From the sequence record PZ452607.1: DNA of 48,737 nucleotides; one strand, 5' to 3'. The stretch comes from a phage. The notes beneath the pieces were generated by a model. The model saw nothing but the letters and a program-made list of their open reading frames with translations, had not been told where the DNA came from and made no database searches. Shown one piece after another: positions 16,099 to 40,907 of this stretch. Both the position numbers and the translations under genes were made by a program. Position 1 is the first letter of the stretch; the number at the start of each line of letters is the position of its first letter.

Positions 16099-19000
16099 AT
16101 GATTCAAAAAGTGATAAGCGGATCTAAAGGTGGGTCACAGAAGCCTCATAACCCAGTTGAGATGGAGGACAATCTAATCTCAATCAACAAAATCAAGATC
16201 CTGTTAGCTGTATCTGATGGTGAAATTGACGAAACATTCAGCCTGAAGCAGTTGATGTTTAACTCAGTCCCGGTGCAAAACGAGGATGGCTCATTTAACT
16301 TCGAGGGAGTAAAGGCAGAGTTCAGACCGGGGACGCAGACTCAGGAATATATCAAGGGAATGGAAGATAGCTCTAGTGAGGTAACTGTAAATCGTGAGGT
16401 TACTACCGATAACCCATACACAATCTCAGTAACCAACAAAACGCTGTCGGCAATCCGTATCAAAATGTTCATGCCTCGCGGCGTACGAATTGAAAGTAAC
16501 GGTGATAAAAATGGCGTAAGAGTTGAGTATGAGGTGCAACAAGCTGTTGATGGCGGCTCGTTTGAGACGGTGCTCACCGATGTAATCGAAGGCAAAACAA
16601 TGTCAGGTTACGATCGAAGCAGACGTGTAAACCTACCTAACTTCAACAATCAGGTGATATTCAGAGTGGTTCGGAAAACTCCAGACTCTAACGACTCGAA
16701 CGTTGTTGACGCGATTCAGGTAAAGAGCTATGCCGAGGTGATTGATGCCAAATTCCGTTATCCGCTGACTGGTCTTCTTTTTGTCGAGTTTGATTCGAAG
16801 ATGTTCCCAAACCAGTTACCTACGATCTCAATTCGTAAGCGCTGGAAGATTGTAAACGTTCCGTCAAACTATGATCCAGAATCACGAACTTATAACGGAA
16901 ATTGGGATGGAACTTTTAAGAAGGCATGGACGAATAATCCGGCCTGGGTGCTTTATGACCTGATGATTAATCAGCGTTATGGCTTGGATCAGAAAGAGCT
17001 TGGTATCGCTGTAGATAAATGGGCGCTCTACGAGGCTGCGCAATATTGCGATCAGATGGTTCCTGATGGGAAGGGCGGGACGGAACCTCGATACCTTTGC
17101 GACGTGATAATCCAGTCTCAGACTGACGCTTACAAGGTTATCCGAGATATTTGCTCAATCTTTCGTGGTATGAGCTTTTGGAATGGTGAGAGCATTTCGG
17201 TAATCATCGACAGGCCGCGTGAACCTGCGTACATCTTCACTAACGACAACGTTGTTAATGGTGACTTCTCCTACACGTTCGCAAGCGAAAAGAGCATGTA
17301 CACGACGTGTAATGTGATGTTTGATGATGAACAAAACATGTATCAGCAGGACGTTGAGCCAGTATTCGATCGTGAGGCTACTCTACGGTTTGGGAACAAC
17401 GTTACGAGCATTACAGCGATCGGTTGCACACGTCGAAGCGAGGCCAACCGACGCGGGAGATGGATTCTGAAAACTAACCTCCGCAGCACTACGGTAAACT
17501 TCGCTACCGGGCTTGAGGGCATGATCCCAACAATCGGAGATGTTGTGGCAATAGCTGATAACTTCTGGTCAAGTAACTTGACAATGAACCTGTCAGGGCG
17601 TTTGCTCGAAGTGTCTGGAAGTCAGATTTTCTTGCCGTTCCGGGTGGATGCACGCGCTGGTGACTTTATTATCGTAAATAAGCCAGATGGCAAGCCTGTG
17701 AAGCGCACAATCTCAAGTGTTAGTGCGGATGGTAAGACTATAGAGGTTAACATTGGCTTTGGCTTTCCTGTGAAGCCTAACACGGTATTCGCTATCGACC
17801 GCACCGACATTGCGTTACAGCAGTACGTCGTGACAAAAATCGATAAGGGCGATGATGATGAGGAATTTACCTACAAAATAACGGCGGTGGAGTACGATCC
17901 TAACAAGTATGATGAGATTGATTACGGAGTTAACATCGACGACCGACCGACGAGCATCGTTGAACCAGATCAGATCCCTAGACCGAAAAATGTGCAAGTA
18001 TCCTCAGAGTCGAGAATCGTCCAGGGGATGAGCGTAGAAACGATGATTGTTAGCTGGGATAAAGTTCCGTACGCTGTTTTCTATGACGTCCAGTGGCGAA
18101 AGGATAACGGTAACTGGCAAAATGTACCGCAGACAGCAAACAAAGAGGTATACGTTGAAGGTATTTACGCTGGCAACTATCAGGTTCGCGTTCGCTCAGT
18201 CGCTGGTTCGGGCACGACTTCAGGCTGGTCAAATATCGTCGCGGCAACGTTGACGGGTAAACAGGGTGAACCGGGCCGAACGATTAACCTCACAGCTACG
18301 GATGATGTTGTTTTTGGTATCCGTACAAAATGGGGGTTCTCTGATGGTTCTGGAGATACAGCCTATACAGAGTTGCAACAGTCACCGGATGGAACAGTGG
18401 ATAACGCAAGTTTGCTTTCTTTGATTCCGTATCCGCAGCATGAGTATTATCACTCACCAATGCCTGGAGGGAATATTGTTTGGTATCGGGTAAGGACGGT
18501 TGACAGGATCGGTAACGTGTCTCAGTGGACTGATTTTGTCAGAGGTATGGCATCAACAAACGTTGACGATATCATTGGGGAGATTTCTGTTGATATCGAA
18601 AACTCACCTGGTTACGAGTGGCTTGTTGATAACGCAACAGACAACGCGGCGCAGAACTCAGCTAACGCAGAGGCAGCAATAGAAAACGCGCTCGCCAATG
18701 ACAAAGACGCGATCTACATGAAGAAGGAGAACGGAAAACGAAAAGCTGAGTACACGAAATCACTGAAACTTATTGCTGATGAGACGCAGGCACGAGTGAC
18801 GGCGATCGAGCAATTGAAGGCAAGTTTTGGCGATCAGATTAGCGCTAGCAACAGCGAGCTGCGTGAGGTTATCGCAACCGAGACTGAAGCACTATCGCGT
18901 GAGATTGACCAGCTTAAGGCTCAGATTGGTGACGATATTCAGGCAAGTCTGACTGATATTCGGGAGGCTATCGCGAACGAGACTGAGGCTAGAACGCAAG

Positions 19001-20865: not shown

Positions 20866-20886
20866 TAGAGCGATTACAATTTTTTT

Positions 20887-21170
20887 CGTGTAACAGGCGT
20901 ATATTTTTGTAACCGGAATGGGTGTTACAAAATCGCCTCCATCCGACCGCAGGGAGATATGATAAAAACTCTATATAATATATATAGATAGATAATATTT
21001 AATTTTAGCTTTATATATATAATTATTGTTGTGTAACAGTTGTATATCGTGTAACAGGTGATTTGATTGATTCGTCAAATTTCTATCATGTATGTTCAAA
21101 ATTTAATCAATCTGGATTCTATTTGTAGGTATCTCTGTATTTCTAATAAAAAGCGGTTACAAGTGTTACG
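20887..21170. repeat. GTGTAACA(G) / GTGTTACA motif cluster in AT-rich control region
   Basis: Copies at 20887, 20921 (inverted), 21031, 21049, 21164; same motif as inverted pair at 40261 and 40286. Confidence 0.5.
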
Positions 21171-21275
21171 CAATAGACAGCGCATAAAAATCTACTTAAG
21201 CCATTGATTCTGTTGATGCTGGTTGTAACTTGAGCAATATAGACACGCAATTACACACTGATTACATGTATTCGA

Positions 21276-21303
21276 TTGACTAAACGCTGTTAATGGCTAT
21301 AAT
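21276..21303 (+). promoter_or_regulatory. sigma70-like promoter for recombination module (TTGACT-16-TATAAT)
   Basis: Near-consensus hexamers about 30 nt upstream of ATG 21335. Confidence 0.55.
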
Positions 21304-21334
21304 GGATTCATCGTAAACGAAGGAGATAAACGCA

Positions 21335-22399
21335 ATGTTCCAGGTATTCACATCAAGCCAGCTTTCTAACGACGAGTATCATAGAAACGAAGGTTGGGCG
21401 TCAGAGTATGTAAGCGGATCGAGTCTTGCAGAAATTTATCAGACCTGCCCTGCTAACTGGAGATTCAAGAAGAACGAGACAACGAAAACTCTGGAGTTCG
21501 GTACTCAGTCGCACACCAACTTTGAGAGTCGAGATCTGTTTACTGCAACGTATGCTAGATGCCCTGCTCCGTCAGAGTTTAAGGATCTGATTACTTCGCA
21601 GGCGGCGCTGGCAGCAAAATTAAAATCATTCGGCCTGAAAGGTACATCCGGTAAGCAGTACCCGGACCTCATCAAAATGATGGTTGATTGTGGTGAAGAA
21701 CTCAACGTTCAATACCTGATTGAACTGATCGCAGAAGCTGAGGCCCGTGCTGAAGGAAAACAACTTGTTGACGCGGACAAATACGACGCTTGCATGAAGA
21801 TGAGAGCCATCCTTGAGCAGAATCCCGATCATGAAGCGTGCATCAACAGTGAAACGGCGCAGCGTGAGATTTCAATCTTCGGTGAGATATCCGGCGTAAA
21901 AGTTAAGGTTCGACTTGACCATCTGGACTACAAAGAGAATGTTCCAGGTCGTGTCCTGACTGGTTATGATGAGAATGGCGATCCGGTATTTGAAGACGTA
22001 ATTTTCCCGGAAGCACTGATTATCACAGATTTCAAAACTACGATGAGCGCCAACCCGTTAGAGTTCCCGAGACTGGCATACAATCACGGCTATTACCTGA
22101 AGATGGCATTGCAGCATGACCTGCTACGACGCGCAATCCAGGCTGGAGCTTTTGAAGGTAACTTCCCGGAAGACATTCCGATCGTGGTTCGATTGCTTGC
22201 GCAGGAGAAAAAAGAGCCTTATATCGCACTGGCTTACCGTATGACTATGGAGCAAATCAGGATAGGTCGTAACCAGTACATTAGCGTAGTCCACACTTAC
22301 AAGGCTTGCTCTGAAATGGATGTTTGGCCTGGGTACGCTGGCGACGCAAGCGAGATCGAACTTGAAACGCCATCATGGGTGCGTTACCAAAATAAGTAA
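21335..22399 (+). CDS. putative recombination exonuclease (RecE/YqaJ-like)
   Basis: First gene of module followed by Erf-like and SSB genes; strong upstream promoter TTGACT-16-TATAAT; family assignment from context. Confidence 0.45.
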   Translation: MFQVFTSSQLSNDEYHRNEGWASEYVSGSSLAEIYQTCPANWRFKKNETTKTLEFGTQSHTNFESRDLFTATYARCPAPSEFKDLITSQAALAAKLKSFGLKGTSGKQYPDLIKMMVDCGEELNVQYLIELIAEAEARAEGKQLVDADKYDACMKMRAILEQNPDHEACINSETAQREISIFGEISGVKVKVRLDHLDYKENVPGRVLTGYDENGDPVFEDVIFPEALIITDFKTTMSANPLEFPRLAYNHGYYLKMALQHDLLRRAIQAGAFEGNFPEDIPIVVRLLAQEKKEPYIALAYRMTMEQIRIGRNQYISVVHTYKACSEMDVWPGYAGDASEIELETPSWVRYQNK

Positions 22400-27400: not shown

Positions 27401-27444
27401 ATAGCACTTTTTGCTAAAAACGTTTACTTTATGCCGTGTATTAT
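27401..27444 (+). promoter_or_regulatory. box + hairpin + -10 element upstream of helicase
   Basis: ATAGCACTTTTTGCTAAAAAC, 22-nt spacer, TATTAT; inverted repeat AACGTTTAC/GTAAACGTT around -10. Confidence 0.5.
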
Positions 27445-35473: not shown

Positions 35474-37042
35474 TTAACCCATCAGTCGAGGATTGATGAA
35501 AACAATATCATCAATCCGGCAAGTGTAGTTCATCTCTTCGAGCGTGATCAGCAGGCTGTCGATTCGCTCAGCTACTTTTTGTTGACCGTTGAACGGCGTA
35601 ACGTTACGGCACTTTGCAACAATGCTATGAATAGGTGCGCGACCTTTGTTCTTCTTTGCGATCTCAGTGATAACATCAATCAGCTTACGAGATTCAGCCT
35701 CATCACCAGCATACCCGGCGGCGCTGGCAGACGACAGATAGGTTCTGGAAAGCTCATTGAAAATCATGATCGCTTCCTGCATTGTTTCAAGGTCAATCTC
35801 ACGGTTGGAACGGTTCGGTGATTCACCCTCCCAGTTCTTGATTGTGTGAAGAACTGAAGCAATGCGCAAAGCGTGCTTATCGAACTTGCCGAGATGACCG
35901 CGTAGCATTGAGTGAGAGTATTTGCCCCCGGCTGCGAAATCCGGCTCCATAGCCTGGCGAGCAAGGTTTAATTCACGCATAGCATTACGGCTTACAGAGA
36001 GAACAACGTTGTCCTCCTTCATAATGTTGTGCACAAGTCGATAATATTTACTCACCAATCCTCGATCGACTTCCTTATACAGTGCATCACCATTTTCATC
36101 GCAAAGAATACGAGTGCCTAAAAGAGGTTCCTCGCGAACCAATAGGAAACGCTCAGATACACCGATACCGCGCTGGCCTGCGTCCATGATACCCTTGATT
36201 GTTTCATCCTGCGCAATGACGCAGATCGAACCGACCGGGCAAAGAGATAAGTTATTGTCCTGATTTGAACGCGCAACCTCCATATGGTTTTTATCCCACG
36301 CCTTGAGGATAAGCTCGCTGTTTGATTTCTTATCAGAACCGCCATAAGTCAGGCCAAGCAATGTATTTATTGCCGTTGCCTCATCAGAGATTACGGAAAA
36401 GTGGCCTTGAACAGCAGCTACTTTCGCAAGACCTTCCGGTGTAGGATCTGATACCGCGAAAACAATATCAGCCATCTTCTTGATCTTCTCTTCCAGTTTT
36501 TCCTTGTCCTCGTACAGCGCCGCCGTCGTGTTACCCTTCGGATCGTTTTTGATTTCCTTCTCGATCTGACGTAGCTGACTGGTTAAACGGATACGTTCCT
36601 TTTTGCGCTCTTCATTCAGTCTCTGAATCTCTGCGCGCATAGGTGTAATCGCCGCTGAGTTAATCGCGGATTTACCTGTTGATGGTGGCTGGCTAATCAC
36701 CATATAAAGAGCGGTCGGTTGTTCTTCTCCGTGATATTGCACCCAAAACTTCCCTAGCATCGCGGCTGAGATGCACCCAATGAAATGAGCGTACGCAGAC
36801 GAAACAGGAAACTGTACAGACTCAGCTTTTGCTTTTGCATATTCGAATACCAGGTTATCGCCACCTAACGAAATCAGCGGGAACTTATCGTTTCCACTGT
36901 TGATATCGATCGGGTCTTGCCAAAACGAAACTGAATCCCCGTAGCTGTTTTCACGAATTGCGATCGCCACCGGATTAACTCCAGTGCTATTTGCGATCTC
37001 AATAATCTGTTGGTAATTCAGTTTTGGCTTAATATTAAACAT
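35474..37042 (-). CDS. P-loop ATPase, putative replication protein (DUF3987-like)
   Basis: Walker A-like PPSTGKS and Walker B-like VIAQDE; RBS AAGGAG before ATG (minus) at 37042; track ORF has 21-codon N-extension. Confidence 0.45.
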   Translation of the reverse strand: MFNIKPKLNYQQIIEIANSTGVNPVAIAIRENSYGDSVSFWQDPIDINSGNDKFPLISLGGDNLVFEYAKAKAESVQFPVSSAYAHFIGCISAAMLGKFWVQYHGEEQPTALYMVISQPPSTGKSAINSAAITPMRAEIQRLNEERKKERIRLTSQLRQIEKEIKNDPKGNTTAALYEDKEKLEEKIKKMADIVFAVSDPTPEGLAKVAAVQGHFSVISDEATAINTLLGLTYGGSDKKSNSELILKAWDKNHMEVARSNQDNNLSLCPVGSICVIAQDETIKGIMDAGQRGIGVSERFLLVREEPLLGTRILCDENGDALYKEVDRGLVSKYYRLVHNIMKEDNVVLSVSRNAMRELNLARQAMEPDFAAGGKYSHSMLRGHLGKFDKHALRIASVLHTIKNWEGESPNRSNREIDLETMQEAIMIFNELSRTYLSSASAAGYAGDEAESRKLIDVITEIAKKNKGRAPIHSIVAKCRNVTPFNGQQKVAERIDSLLITLEEMNYTCRIDDIVFINPRLMG

Positions 37043-39066: not shown

Positions 39067-39267
39067 TCAGGATAGCTTTCTAGCTTCATCAATGATAACA
39101 GGTTCGAGACGCTCAAGTCGAACGCGGAACGTGTTCATAAATCCCTCGTTATTCTTCAATAACTCGAAGGCGTCCGTAGCTTCAATGGCGCTACTACCCA
39201 TGTAAGCGATTACGCGCTTCTGTGTTTTTCGTGAGATCGCCACTACGCGGTAAATATTATCACTCAT
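39067..39267 (-). CDS. hypothetical protein
   Basis: RBS AAGGAGG before ATG (minus) at 39267. Confidence 0.4.
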   Translation of the reverse strand: MSDNIYRVVAISRKTQKRVIAYMGSSAIEATDAFELLKNNEGFMNTFRVRLERLEPVIIDEARKLS

Positions 39268-39631
39268 ACAATGCCTCCTTAACACGATCCGCTACGAATG
39301 AGTTAACGGTGATTGAATAGTCAGCCACGAAGCAAGGAGCAACACTGCCTGGCTCAGTGCGCATGAATGGTTTATTGAACTGAGTGATTACCTCGCCAGT
39401 ATCGTTATCAATTAAGCGAGACGCGCCTAAGCGGTCCACCACGCGCGTTACGCGGTCCACGCACTCCATTACATCACTTACGTCATAATAGGCGGTTAGA
39501 GCGGCTATCATTGCCTTCTCTTGCTTGTTGTGAATCTTACGCGCAATGTTCTCTATCGCAACGTGCACTTTCTCGTCAGTCTGGATTACCGAGCTGGCTG
39601 AGAAGTCCAGATCTGTGAACTGCTTAAACAT
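39260..39631 (-). CDS. hypothetical early protein (first gene of leftward early block)
   Basis: RBS GAGGAAAG; two tandem box elements upstream. Confidence 0.45.
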   Translation of the reverse strand: MFKQFTDLDFSASSVIQTDEKVHVAIENIARKIHNKQEKAMIAALTAYYDVSDVMECVDRVTRVVDRLGASRLIDNDTGEVITQFNKPFMRTEPGSVAPCFVADYSITVNSFVADRVKEALYE

Positions 39632-39663
39632 AATACTTTCCTCGTTTACTGTTGATGTGATGA

Positions 39664-39709
39664 ATCATACCCAGTAGACATGGATAAGTCGTTAGCAAAA
39701 AATGCTATT
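39664..39709 (-). promoter_or_regulatory. box + -10 element upstream of leftward early block
   Basis: Minus strand AATAGCATTTTTTGCTAACG, 23 nt, TATGAT. Confidence 0.45.
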
Positions 39710-39787
39710 CCAATAATTGCTCATTATTCCATCAATACTGGAATATCTGGAATAATCACTATCATGATTGATCTCTAATGATGAGAT

Positions 39788-39827
39788 GTGATTGTTGCAT
39801 GGTGTGCAACTGTTGATGTGATTGTTT
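39788..39827. repeat. direct repeats GATGTGATTGTT (third related copy near 39652)
   Basis: gatgtgattgttgca...ctgttgatgtgattgtttc; ctgttgatgtgatgaatca at 39650..39668. Confidence 0.5.
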
Positions 39828-39893
39828 CTTAGAATGCAATGATTGTGAGAGGGGGGATCTAGTGTTACCAGGTTCGCCTGGTAGTCATCTCCA

Positions 39894-39915
39894 TTTTTAG
39901 CAAAAAGTGCTATCG
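39894..39915 (-). promoter_or_regulatory. box copy, second (distal) copy upstream of leftward early block
   Basis: Minus strand GATAGCACTTTTTGCTAAAAAT followed by hairpin ACCAGG cgaa CCTGGT. Confidence 0.4.
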
Positions 39916-40190
39916 ATTACGATTACGCTTGATTGCGTGTTAATCATTGTATATGATTTGCCTAAATCGCAATCGTATACAAAATTACGCCAAATTACGC
40001 CTTATAATATACATATAGATATATGTATATATATAATATATAAGTGTTTTTTTTATTTATATATATAGATACTATTATTTGTAATATGGTTGTATAGCGT
40101 GTCTTTTATGTTAATCGTTGGATGCTCTGATTATGATGCTCATGTTTATATATACAGTAGTTTTATCGGCGCATATTTATTTAGGGAAAT

Positions 40191-40217
40191 CGATTAACAC
40201 GATTAACACGATTAACC
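40191..40217. repeat. tandem 9-bp repeat CGATTAACA x3
   Basis: cgattaaca cgattaaca cgattaacc; related copies CGATTACGATTACG at 39914..39927 and AAATTACGCC x2 at 39982..40001. Confidence 0.6.
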
Positions 40218-40260
40218 ACACTTAAAATCGCCCCGCAGACCTTGACACATGCGGGTCGTC

Positions 40261-40293
40261 GTGTAACACTACGATTAGAGACACGGTGTTACA
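40261..40293. repeat. inverted pair GTGTAACAC ... GTGTTACA upstream of first rightward early gene
   Basis: Half-sites about 17 bp apart, just downstream of a TTGACA hexamer at 40242. Confidence 0.5.
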
Positions 40294-40331
40294 TGTTAAT
40301 CATGGTGTATATTGAAACTAAGGAGAAAGCT

Positions 40332-40907
40332 ATGAGTTCTTACCAGTCAGACGCAGTACAGGCAGCAATCAAGGCAGCTTACGAGAAGGCCGGAGTAACG
40401 GTTGAGCAGCGACCGGAGGCAAAAGTGACCGATGTTATCCGGGCCGCCTGCGATCAGCTTTATGGTGATGGCGAGAATACCGAGTTCACATTCGACGCGA
40501 ATAAGATGGCTGAGGCCGCAGCAAGAAAGTCGATGCCAGACGCTGACGAACATGATGTTGCCAAAGGCGCCGAGTCCTGGTTGCTCGGGAAGACGGATGA
40601 GATTAACGAGAAGTTTAAATCCTCATTCATCACCCCGATCGTTTCTCGACACTTCTCCAAGATCGGCAAGTCGGTCAAGGTGAGCGTGACCATGAACGAT
40701 GAGAAGTTGCGAGTCGTTACTATCTCAGTGAGTGACGAAGAAGTTCCGGTGAAGAAGCGCCGCAGCCGGAAAAAAGTCAGCCTGGCTGATTGTCTGGATT
40801 CGTTTGTTCCTGATGTTGATGATCTTGAGAAAGGCGACGTTACTGTAAGCACCGTGCGCGACCTGGTTCGCCAGATGAAAGCGCATATCGAAAAATGTGG
40901 ACTGTAA
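40332..40907 (+). CDS. hypothetical early protein (first gene of rightward early block)
   Basis: RBS AAGGAGAAAG before ATG 40332; preceded by iteron-rich control region; basic C-terminal patch KKRRSRKK. Confidence 0.45.
   Translation: MSSYQSDAVQAAIKAAYEKAGVTVEQRPEAKVTDVIRAACDQLYGDGENTEFTFDANKMAEAAARKSMPDADEHDVAKGAESWLLGKTDEINEKFKSSFITPIVSRHFSKIGKSVKVSVTMNDEKLRVVTISVSDEEVPVKKRRSRKKVSLADCLDSFVPDVDDLEKGDVTVSTVRDLVRQMKAHIEKCGL

Follow-up and report, generated by a model that had tools for sequence, protein, structure and literature searches.

The question raised by the long gene-free gap between the two divergent early operons of coliphage T1 is what its many short repeats do: whether they form an origin of replication, an early regulatory switch, or several separate elements. 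The gap, at 39632-40331, was analyzed within a phage sequence of 48,737 nucleotides (PZ452607.1, here called the window), and it is bordered by operons of small early genes, led by ST1 leftward and by ST77 rightward. The window is T1 in a rotated form that starts at the large-terminase gene; from 39400 to 40600 it is 99.9% identical to NC_005833, AY216660 and MK213796. The original prediction had described the gap as an AT-rich divergent control region free of open reading frames (ORFs), with several iteron families that made it a candidate origin or early switch. The gap is a composite of a known promoter-associated repeat, a known pac-end region, and a previously undescribed, exchangeable cassette of an AT core, repeated words, a promoter and ST77. 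The origin of T1-like phages has been reported as not found (PMC11447400, PMC7718038), and no literature on mapping of the T1 origin or of Drexlerviridae transcripts was found.

The general outline given by the prediction stands. The longest ORF within the gap encodes 53 amino acids, its GC content is 34.0% (45.5% for the genome), and ST1 and ST77 diverge from it. A gene-free gap of 650-800 bp occurs at the same place in 7/7 aligned tunaviruses, even where the left-hand genes differ. The small ORFs in the gap keep neither length nor start codon across relatives, which makes a hidden gene unlikely, and Rfam covariance models produced no match at E <= 1 between 39300 and 40600. The comparative set comprised these seven tunaviruses together with the AV106 type, TLS, Webervirus 1513 and Enterobacter phage BHUENT9. 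Within it, two parts of the gap behave differently. Every tunavirus found has the left module (39651-39913), at 83-89% identity. Where the small terminase, TerS, is 99% identical, the left 280 bp are always conserved, while the right 420 bp vary and TerS does not; in some lineages, a block replacement of sequence starts directly to the right of a repeat named box2, a mosaic breakpoint. It may be that this layout, a terminus and a control region combined in two modules, is conserved across the Drexlerviridae, a suggestion made tentatively and jointly with the full explanation developed below.

The cassette occupies the right module (39914-40331), where a constant order of elements is combined with changing sequence. 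The order is an inverted word, an AT-only core, a second inverted word, a gap of ~80-100 bp, two or three tandem words, a TTGACN-17/18-(TGt) promoter and a gene of the ST77 family. Five lineages share this one geometry and have five different words: GATTAACA in T1, LHE71, Lg3 and ULIM2; CTAGACA in SA12KD, LeonhardEuler and vB_SsoS_008 (the Shfl1 type); GGTTGCA in AV106, DELF2 and one metagenomic relative; GTGAACA in TLS; and ATCTTACC in Webervirus. No lineage has the word of another in its right module, bar one GATTAAC in Sso008, which lies in a leftover piece of a T1-type 5' untranslated region. In T1, the word, which is shorter than classical iterons, occurs as GATTAAC(A) in three tandem and three inverted copies (39938, 40109 and 40294) within 365 bp, and 6 of the 17 genomic copies of GATTAAC fall within 418 bp (P ~1e-8). 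The triple CGATTAACA that had been predicted at 40191..40217 is indeed tandem, with 2.9 copies at 40191-40216, and the inverted copies extend the family beyond it.

At the position of the tandem array, other lineages have CTAGACAGCTAGACAA, or CGGTTGCAT CGGTTGCAC TGGTTACAA, or GTGAACA twice; at the position of the 40109 copy, TGTCTAGCG is found in the Shfl1 type and TGCAACC in the AV106 type. The promoter, TTGACN-17/18 followed by TGt and a -10 hexamer, is in the same place in all lineages, and in T1 it is predicted to be a strong sigma-70 rightward early promoter (P_R). In TLS, the tandem words lie ~100 bp upstream of the -35 element, so that what is kept is the adjacency to AT-rich DNA and not the spacing between word and promoter. 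A 70-bp segment of the core (40005-40075) is invariant in seven phages of the T1 and Shfl1 types, and the words on both sides of it changed together. When scattered copies all change in concert to a single new word, this suggests sites that are read by one factor whose specificity has changed, and the lineage words are probably sites for a lineage-specific factor of this kind. Conservation of the repeats in related phages had been proposed as a check on the original reading, and the outcome is divided: the left module and the geometry are kept, but the words differ by lineage. In vB_SsoS_008 (locus L010, ~2100-2440), a remnant of a T1-type 5' untranslated region, including TGTTAATCA and a ribosome-binding site, is present between the phage's own promoter and the gene.

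The AT-only core itself has a GC content of 12%; at windows of 80-150 bp, no duplex in the genome is less stable, and the core lies ~6 standard deviations from the mean. Analogous cores are present in AV106, TLS, Webervirus and BHUENT9. The folding of the T1 core is not exceptional (z -1.3). To its left, a consensus scan identified a candidate promoter, P_A; of the seven aligned phages, six keep it and Sso008 lacks it. In SA12KD and LeonhardEuler, an alignment read by eye places TTGTCA-17-TAGAAT at the same columns, and the word of these phages, TGTCTAG, overlaps the -10. The match to consensus is what suggests that P_A may be a promoter. Other repeats predicted for this area are present, namely CGATTAC twice at 39914-39926 and AAATTACGCC twice, followed by TATAAT at 40003. 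The latter repeat shows no genome-wide enrichment, and outside the T1 sub-lineage it is not conserved.

To find the protein that reads the words, all annotated T1 proteins were compared with two complete genomes, one for each of the two remaining tunavirus word types. Identity across types is 99% for TerS, 100% for the large terminase TerL, 96% for the primase, 97-98% for the superfamily 2 (SF2) helicase ST22 (ResIII/Helicase_C), 99-100% for the DUF3987 helicase ST9, 97-99% for ST10, 97% for the C2/Cro-like regulator ST23 and 89-98% for SSB. All of these were rejected as word readers, being 89-100% identical where the words differ. The primase, ATPase and helix-turn-helix proteins that had been put forward as binders in the original prediction are among the conserved proteins (96-100%) and cannot set word specificity. 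Only ST77 (54% identity to one type and no match in the other) and ST76 (no match in either) differ between all types. ST76 is disfavored because it falls to 44% identity (ULIM2) within the single GATTAACA type, in which the N-terminus of ST77 remains 87-90% identical. ST1, on the other side of the gap, is 73-76% identical in relatives irrespective of repeat type. ST9 (35474-37042) has a DUF3987 domain (E 2.5e-42), matches a PHROG labeled 'DNA helicase' and is 99-100% identical across tunaviruses; it is probably the replicative helicase.

The part of ST77 that tracks the word is its N-terminal 135 amino acids; the C-terminal helix and a conserved basic linker, KKRRSRKK, show no such tracking. 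Lg3 and ULIM2, which have the GATTAACA word, have the same C-terminal tail variant as the CTAGACA phages, which indicates that the two halves of ST77 recombine independently, at the KKRRSRKK linker. Two tail variants, …VPDVDDLEKGDVTVSTVRDLV… and …DVDVSKLGDSELMVRDVNEIV…, were seen, and they assort independently of the N-terminal type. If a lineage-specific factor exists, ST77 is likely to be that factor, to judge from this pattern of co-variation. The first genes of AV106, TLS and Webervirus are remote members of the same family, as indicated by bridging between phrog_11083 and phrog_4841, a Foldseek match to SH6 (E 1e-8) and profile matches. ST77 belongs to phrog_11083, for which the PHROGs function entry is unknown. 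Pfam yielded only sub-threshold matches to DUF7174 and AcrF2, a profile search of the PDB found nothing, Foldseek against viral models returned family members only, and neither fusions nor names emerged from a profile search of 5.8 billion proteins. No recognized DNA-binding domain was found in ST77, and its fold matches are weak.

These observations can be accommodated in a two-module account, preferred here but proposed with reservation, in which the left module provides the genome terminus and the leftward promoter, and the right module is an exchangeable cassette of ST77, words and core that acts as both an early switch and an iteron-like origin. ST77 would bind the words via its variable N-terminal domain. 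Bound to the tandem triplet and to the copy in the 5' untranslated region, it would feed back on P_R as an early on/off switch; bound to the copies that flank the core, one of which sits inside P_A, a candidate promoter that would fire into the core, it would organize the core as an iteron-like replication origin. The conserved basic linker and C-terminal helix could contact the invariant replication machinery. Two features by which iteron origins are recognized, a cluster of at least three repeated words and an adjacent AT-rich unwinding region, are both present in the cassette. Of the predicted candidate origin or early switch, the divergent early control stands, and GATTAACA resembles a set of protein sites beside a readily melted AT tract; the origin is challenged by a rival location, site B, discussed below. 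A role of the cassette as a replication origin, beyond that of an early transcriptional switch, is a real possibility, but one to be held loosely.

A number of points weigh against this account. The N-terminus of ST77 is the coding DNA nearest the words, and physical linkage may contribute to their co-variation. The ST77 homologue of vB_SsoS_008 has an in-frame TAA at codon 89 (ATT GAT TAA CGT) while the words are intact, which argues against an essential initiator unless the stop is a sequencing error. ST77 is unrecognizable as an initiator and possibly dispensable, and no homologues were found on plasmids; nor was the cassette found in E. coli genomes. The gap contains no match to the DnaA and IHF consensus sequences (TTWTNCACA, TTATNCANA and WATCAANNNNTTR), and GATC is not enriched in it. 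The words, at 9 bp and contiguous, are unlike typical phased iterons of 17-22 bp. GC skew, which had been suggested as a check, does show a local cumulative minimum at 39-40 kb, but gene orientation alone explains it. The roles proposed for the origin, the promoters and ST77 binding are all read from the sequence.

It may be, instead, that the cassette controls transcription only. The words would then be ST77 operators that switch P_R and possibly P_A, the core would be curved, UP-like or nucleoid-protein-binding DNA, and replication would start elsewhere, for example at site B or in a recombination-dependent manner at the redundant ends. The word copies are mostly promoter-associated, with one in the P_A spacer, three at ~-87 to -61 of P_R and one at ~+17 to +25, although the 40109 copy has no promoter nearby. 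The predicted inverted pair GTGTAACAC/GTGTTACA is present at 40261-40269 and 40287-40294 and overlaps the -10 of P_R; where T1 has this pair, AV106 has TGTAAC...GTTACA. The small size of ST77, its lack of an initiator signature and its possible dispensability in vB_SsoS_008 would also suit a regulator, and site B offers a conserved alternative origin. However, an operator array needs no 90-bp AT-only core 150-240 bp upstream with inverted words on both sides, the core-flanking geometry is kept in five lineages, and the tandem words of TLS keep their adjacency to AT-rich DNA and not their distance to the promoter. Control of transcription alone is regarded as rather unlikely. The inverted pair was also considered as a hairpin and rejected, its folding not being exceptional (z -0.9).

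Site B, at ~20880-21335 between cor and recE, has the same anatomy as the gap cassette. Its AT-only core (~20956-21035) contains TATATAGATAGATAAT and ranks second in the genome for low duplex stability; seven TGTAAC/GTTACA words flank the core, and TTGACT-17-TATAAT is present at 21277-21304. Across the three tunavirus word types, the site shows 93-95% conservation, as would be expected for a target of invariant replication proteins. Lying beside recombination and replication genes, it appears to be no worse a candidate than the gap for the origin at which such proteins would act, and this too counts against an origin in the cassette. Ten of the 24 genomic copies of TGTAAC/GTTACA are located in three early promoter regions, namely site B (20889-21224), P_R (40262 and 40288) and the ST23 promoter (27454), and could represent the regulon of a conserved regulator, with the caveat that these regions were chosen post hoc. 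A broader proposal, that the ST77 family (phrog_11083/phrog_4841, DUF7174-like) is an unrecognized class of small sequence-specific DNA-binding proteins forming an exchangeable origin-plus-specificity cassette, with site B as a second origin, is doubtful at present.

The comparison with site B also bears on a further model, in which the AT core of the gap is an origin recognized by conserved proteins (ST9, ST10 and the primase) or opened by transcription, and the words and ST77 are unrelated to it, for example regulating a fast-evolving host-takeover gene. Words of the TATATAGATA type occur in the cores of both the gap and site B, and phages of two word types do not differ over 40005-40075; the replication proteins are likewise invariant, ST9 among them with its DUF3987 and 'DNA helicase' matches. 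ST77 varies in the manner of an arms-race gene and has its weak, sub-threshold match to AcrF2. On the other hand, the core of the AV106 type differs in sequence despite the same replication proteins, and the words flank the core as well as the promoter. Such a model is considered improbable.

Among known systems, the words that flank the core resemble those of iteron plasmids, the lambda origin and, especially, the origins of Staphylococcus aureus pathogenicity islands (SaPIs). Replicons of the pSC101 type contain an AT-rich region, direct repeats, a promoter with inverted copies and an adjacent gene for the binding protein. The elements of the T1 cassette occur in a matching order, and promoter-proximal binding would likewise be autoregulatory; the differences are that the T1 words are 8-9 bp, contiguous and in two or three tandem copies, compared with phased iterons of 17-22 bp, that the cassette has no DnaA or IHF boxes, and that nothing similar was found on plasmids. 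In variants of the lambda origin and its O protein, as in T1, the words and the N-terminal part of a small protein vary together among phages that are otherwise alike, while the C-terminal part is conserved, and an AT-rich tract adjoins the repeats; the conserved C-terminal part of O contacts the helicase-loading partner. The lambda iterons, however, are inside the O gene, whereas the T1 words are upstream of ST77, O and ST77 have no sequence relation or clear fold relation, and T1 is virulent.

In SaPI origins, two sets of island-specific short words reportedly flank an AT-rich stretch of ~80 bp, and word specificity is said to co-vary with a domain of the adjacent protein. The T1 cassette likewise has words on both sides of an AT-rich stretch and a co-varying neighbor protein. 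However, the SaPI Rep protein is a helicase with an ATPase domain, while ST77 has 191 amino acids and no such domain, and the T1 helicases do not vary with the word. A different parallel is provided by the T7 primary origin and by oriF and oriG of T4, which combine a promoter with an AT-rich element for unwinding. P_A, a consensus match, would similarly fire into the core.

The left module has a separate character. It contains a copy of the box repeat (box1), a TATTCCA/TGGAATA array, a GATT-rich stretch with the palindrome GTTGCAtggtgTGCAAC, a hairpin and a second copy, box2. The GGAATA repeats of the original prediction are part of the array, in which TGGAATA (39739 and 39748) and inverted TATTCCA (39706 and 39725) account for 4 of 12 genomic copies within 61 bp (P ~2e-9). 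The array is kept in all tunaviruses, and together with box1 it is recognizable in Webervirus 1513 and Enterobacter phage BHUENT9. In TLS (locus L025, ~480-530), two AGACCGATTGGTCT palindromes replace the T1 array, so that the position is conserved and the sequence swapped. The GATT-rich stretch holds four copies of TGATTG, the palindrome GTTGCAtggtgTGCAAC (39794-39810) and GATGTGATTGTT, which had been predicted in three copies; two are exact (39785 and 39815), and beyond these only the shorter ACTGTTGATGTGAT is found (39648 and 39809). With GATGTGATTGTT and GGAATA residing in a conserved module of their own, one that holds the pac end, the repeats of the gap do not form a single iteron set. 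The hairpin was rejected as a conserved structure, since relatives carry an uncompensated A-to-C change in an alignment read by eye.

Several genome maps begin in this module. Coordinate 1 of the T1 record, which is also the start of its annotated 2.8-kb terminal repeat, corresponds to 39794, the first base of GTTGCAtggtgTGCAAC, and among Shfl1, S2_02, SH2 and IME167 the records open at 39848, 39849, 39862 or 39882. The start of the TLS map lies in homologous GATT-rich DNA (...ATGATGATTGATGTGTG/AGATTTTGTGATTG..., with the slash marking the start of the map), 588 bp upstream of the ST77-family gene of that phage. The pac site of TLS was located by restriction mapping (PMC11447400), and the paper on SU57 places that of T1 and its relatives in this untranslated region (PMC7718038). 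The left module thus appears to contain the conventional genome end, or pac end, of T1, a placement that depends on how depositors set coordinate 1 of their records. TerS is a protein of the P22-gp3 family, and this end is presumably recognized by the invariant P22-gp3-type small terminase. The genome terminus, like the genome-wide nature of the boxes described below, was missed in the original prediction.

As in the pac sites of headful phages (P1 pac, the pacL-pacC-pacR region of SPP1 and P22 pac), short repeated words in non-coding DNA surround the start of mature DNA, but the T1 pac end is 8.4 kb from terS, rather than inside it. It could be supposed from this that the whole 700 bp is one extended pac site, with all repeats serving as small-terminase sites, on the model of P1 or SPP1. 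The gap does hold the map ends of T1, TLS and several relatives, the literature puts pac in this untranslated region (PMC7718038), and TerS belongs to the P22 gp3 family. However, TerS and TerL are 99% and 100% identical where the right-half words and AT core differ wholly, so that the terminase cannot be reading those words, and only the left 280 bp are co-conserved with it. Despite the family membership of TerS, the gap resembles the P22 pac 22-mer no more than expected by chance: at best 13/22 positions match there, and the best match in the genome, 15/22, lies elsewhere, so a P22-like pac site in the gap was rejected. An extended pac site is very unlikely.

The boxes belong to a wider family. 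The two copies in the gap (39692 and 39897) match at 17/17 and 16/17 positions and have the same orientation, but they are 205 bp apart rather than tandem, contrary to the prediction, and they are not local iterons: they belong to a promoter-associated repeat already described for T1-like phages (PMC11447400), of which 20 copies occur genome-wide, compared with 0.5 expected. All 20 match aaATAGCACnnnTTGnTAAAA, the 21-nt intergenic repeat described in TLS and mentioned for T1, the function of which was left open, with stoperator, enhancer and UP-like roles considered (German et al. 2024, PMC11447400). In 16 of the 20, a TAnnnT hexamer (at least 4/6 match to TATAAT, often TGnTATAGT) lies 21-22 nt downstream, which has a chance of 0.041 per copy (P ~3e-19), and in the box units a Shine-Dalgarno sequence and start codon follow 30-40 nt beyond this -10-like hexamer. 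The box would thus occupy ~-50 to -34 of a promoter-like unit, with its TTGnTA 22 nt from the -10. As this is too far for an ordinary -35, the natural reading is that the box may be an activator site or the mark of an unusual promoter class. The fixed spacing from box to -10 bears on the question left open in PMC11447400.

Both boxes in the gap match the 21-nt consensus and point in the leftward direction of transcription. The core of box1 (from G96 on) is invariant in seven phages, and box1 lies 77-79 nt upstream of the ST1 ATG in leftward orientation, similar to the distance reported for the TLS repeat (~76 nt). Its -10 hexamer is followed by a Shine-Dalgarno sequence, AGGAA, and then by the ST1 ATG, and this unit (P_L1) is predicted to be a leftward box-type early promoter that drives the ST1 operon. 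Box2 is atypical, being ~270 nt from the nearest start and having no canonical -10 at 21-22 nt. Examples of boxes elsewhere in the window are found at 27401, 30933, 32913, 37099, 38058, 38574, 41243, 42062, 43328, 44137, 44657 and 46324. In at least seven units (38058, 38574, 41243, 42062, 43328, 44137 and 44657), the -10 is within the loop of a 6-8-bp inverted repeat that differs by unit (GGGGTA/TACCCC, GGGGTT/AACCCC, AAGGCCA/TGGCCTT, AGGGGAAT/ATTCCCCT, AAGGGCAT/ATGCCCTT and others), so that structure is preserved and sequence is not; some annotators label these repeats as terminators.

There remains the view that the repeats have no function, having arisen in an AT-rich spacer by chance or as scars of recombination. 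Matches to sigma-70-like promoters number 4, compared with 3.1 in shuffled sequences, AAATTACGCC is not enriched and the fold of the AT core is unexceptional. Against this, the enrichment of the box, GATTAAC and TATTCCA is strong, long stretches are invariant while flanking genes diverge, and one geometry is maintained with different words in five lineages. A functionless spacer is hardly credible. The coordinates of the individual features are collected in the table.

Table. Features of the T1 gap and its bordering genes (window coordinates; promoter and binding roles are predictions)
Feature	Position	Strand	Remarks
ST1	39260..39631	-	First gene of leftward early operon; left border of gap
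P_L1 -10 hexamer, TATGAT	39664..39669	-	22 nt downstream of box1; predicted start near 39657
Box1	39692..39708	-	ATAGCATTTTTTGCTAA in transcription direction; ~-51 to -35 of P_L1
TATTCCA x2 / TGGAATA x2 array	39706..39754		Palindromic arrangement; upstream of P_L1
GATT-rich pac-end region	39764..39883		Conserved in all tunaviruses
Hairpin TACCAGG-TTCG-CCTGGTA	39866..39883		In GATT-rich stretch
Box2	39897..39913	-	ATAGCACTTTTTGCTAA; right edge of universally conserved left module
Candidate promoter P_A, TTGATT-17-TATGAT	39929..39957	+	Consensus scan; would fire into AT core ~45 bp downstream
Inverted word copy TGTTAATCA	39938..39946		In P_A spacer
AAATTACGCC x2	39982..40001	+	Followed by TATAAT at 40003-40008
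AT-only core	40003..40092		12% GC; 11-bp perfect palindrome 40007-40030, TATATAGATA-type words, T8 run
Inverted lineage word TGTTAATCG	40109..40117	-	Just right of core
Three tandem 9-bp words CGATTAACA CGATTAACA CGATTAACC	40191..40217	+	24 bp upstream of P_R -35
P_R, TTGACA-17-(TGt)AACACT	40242..40270	+	Extended -10; predicted start near 40277
Inverted pair GTGTAACAC / GTGTTACA	40261..40294		Spans P_R -10 and early transcribed region; operator-like
Inverted word copy TGTTAATCA	40294..40302	-	5' untranslated region of ST77
ST77	40332..40907	+	191 amino acids; first gene of rightward operon; candidate word-binding protein

Two further observations concern the sequences themselves. Over the whole genome, the window has 35 mismatches to the T1 reference besides a repeat difference in the tail-tip gene J (~18862-18986), where it has one copy fewer of an in-frame 99-bp tandem repeat (33 amino acids); the window is 99 bp shorter than the reference. 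Three metagenomic contigs with ST77-family genes (L026, L027 and L028) begin 272-674 bp 5' of the gene, inside the gap, one of them inside the AT core. Such starts are consistent with a physical end, a coverage change, or assembly breaks in low-complexity DNA.

T1 is one of Delbruck's seven classical T phages. What was a repeat-rich spacer in its genome now consists of three separable elements with coordinates: a box-type promoter class, a pac-end module and a swappable cassette, the last represented by five natural variants of specificity and having a named candidate binding protein, ST77. Should the cassette prove to be an origin, the exchange of origin-specificity modules, familiar from temperate lambdoid phages, would extend to virulent siphophages; the cassette would then be the counterpart, in lytic phages, of the lambdoid O/ori modules and would provide a first location for the T1 replication origin. 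It may then also offer a handle for engineering or inhibiting T1, a notorious contaminant of laboratories and fermentations. As an early switch alone, the cassette would still define a family of regulators new among phages.

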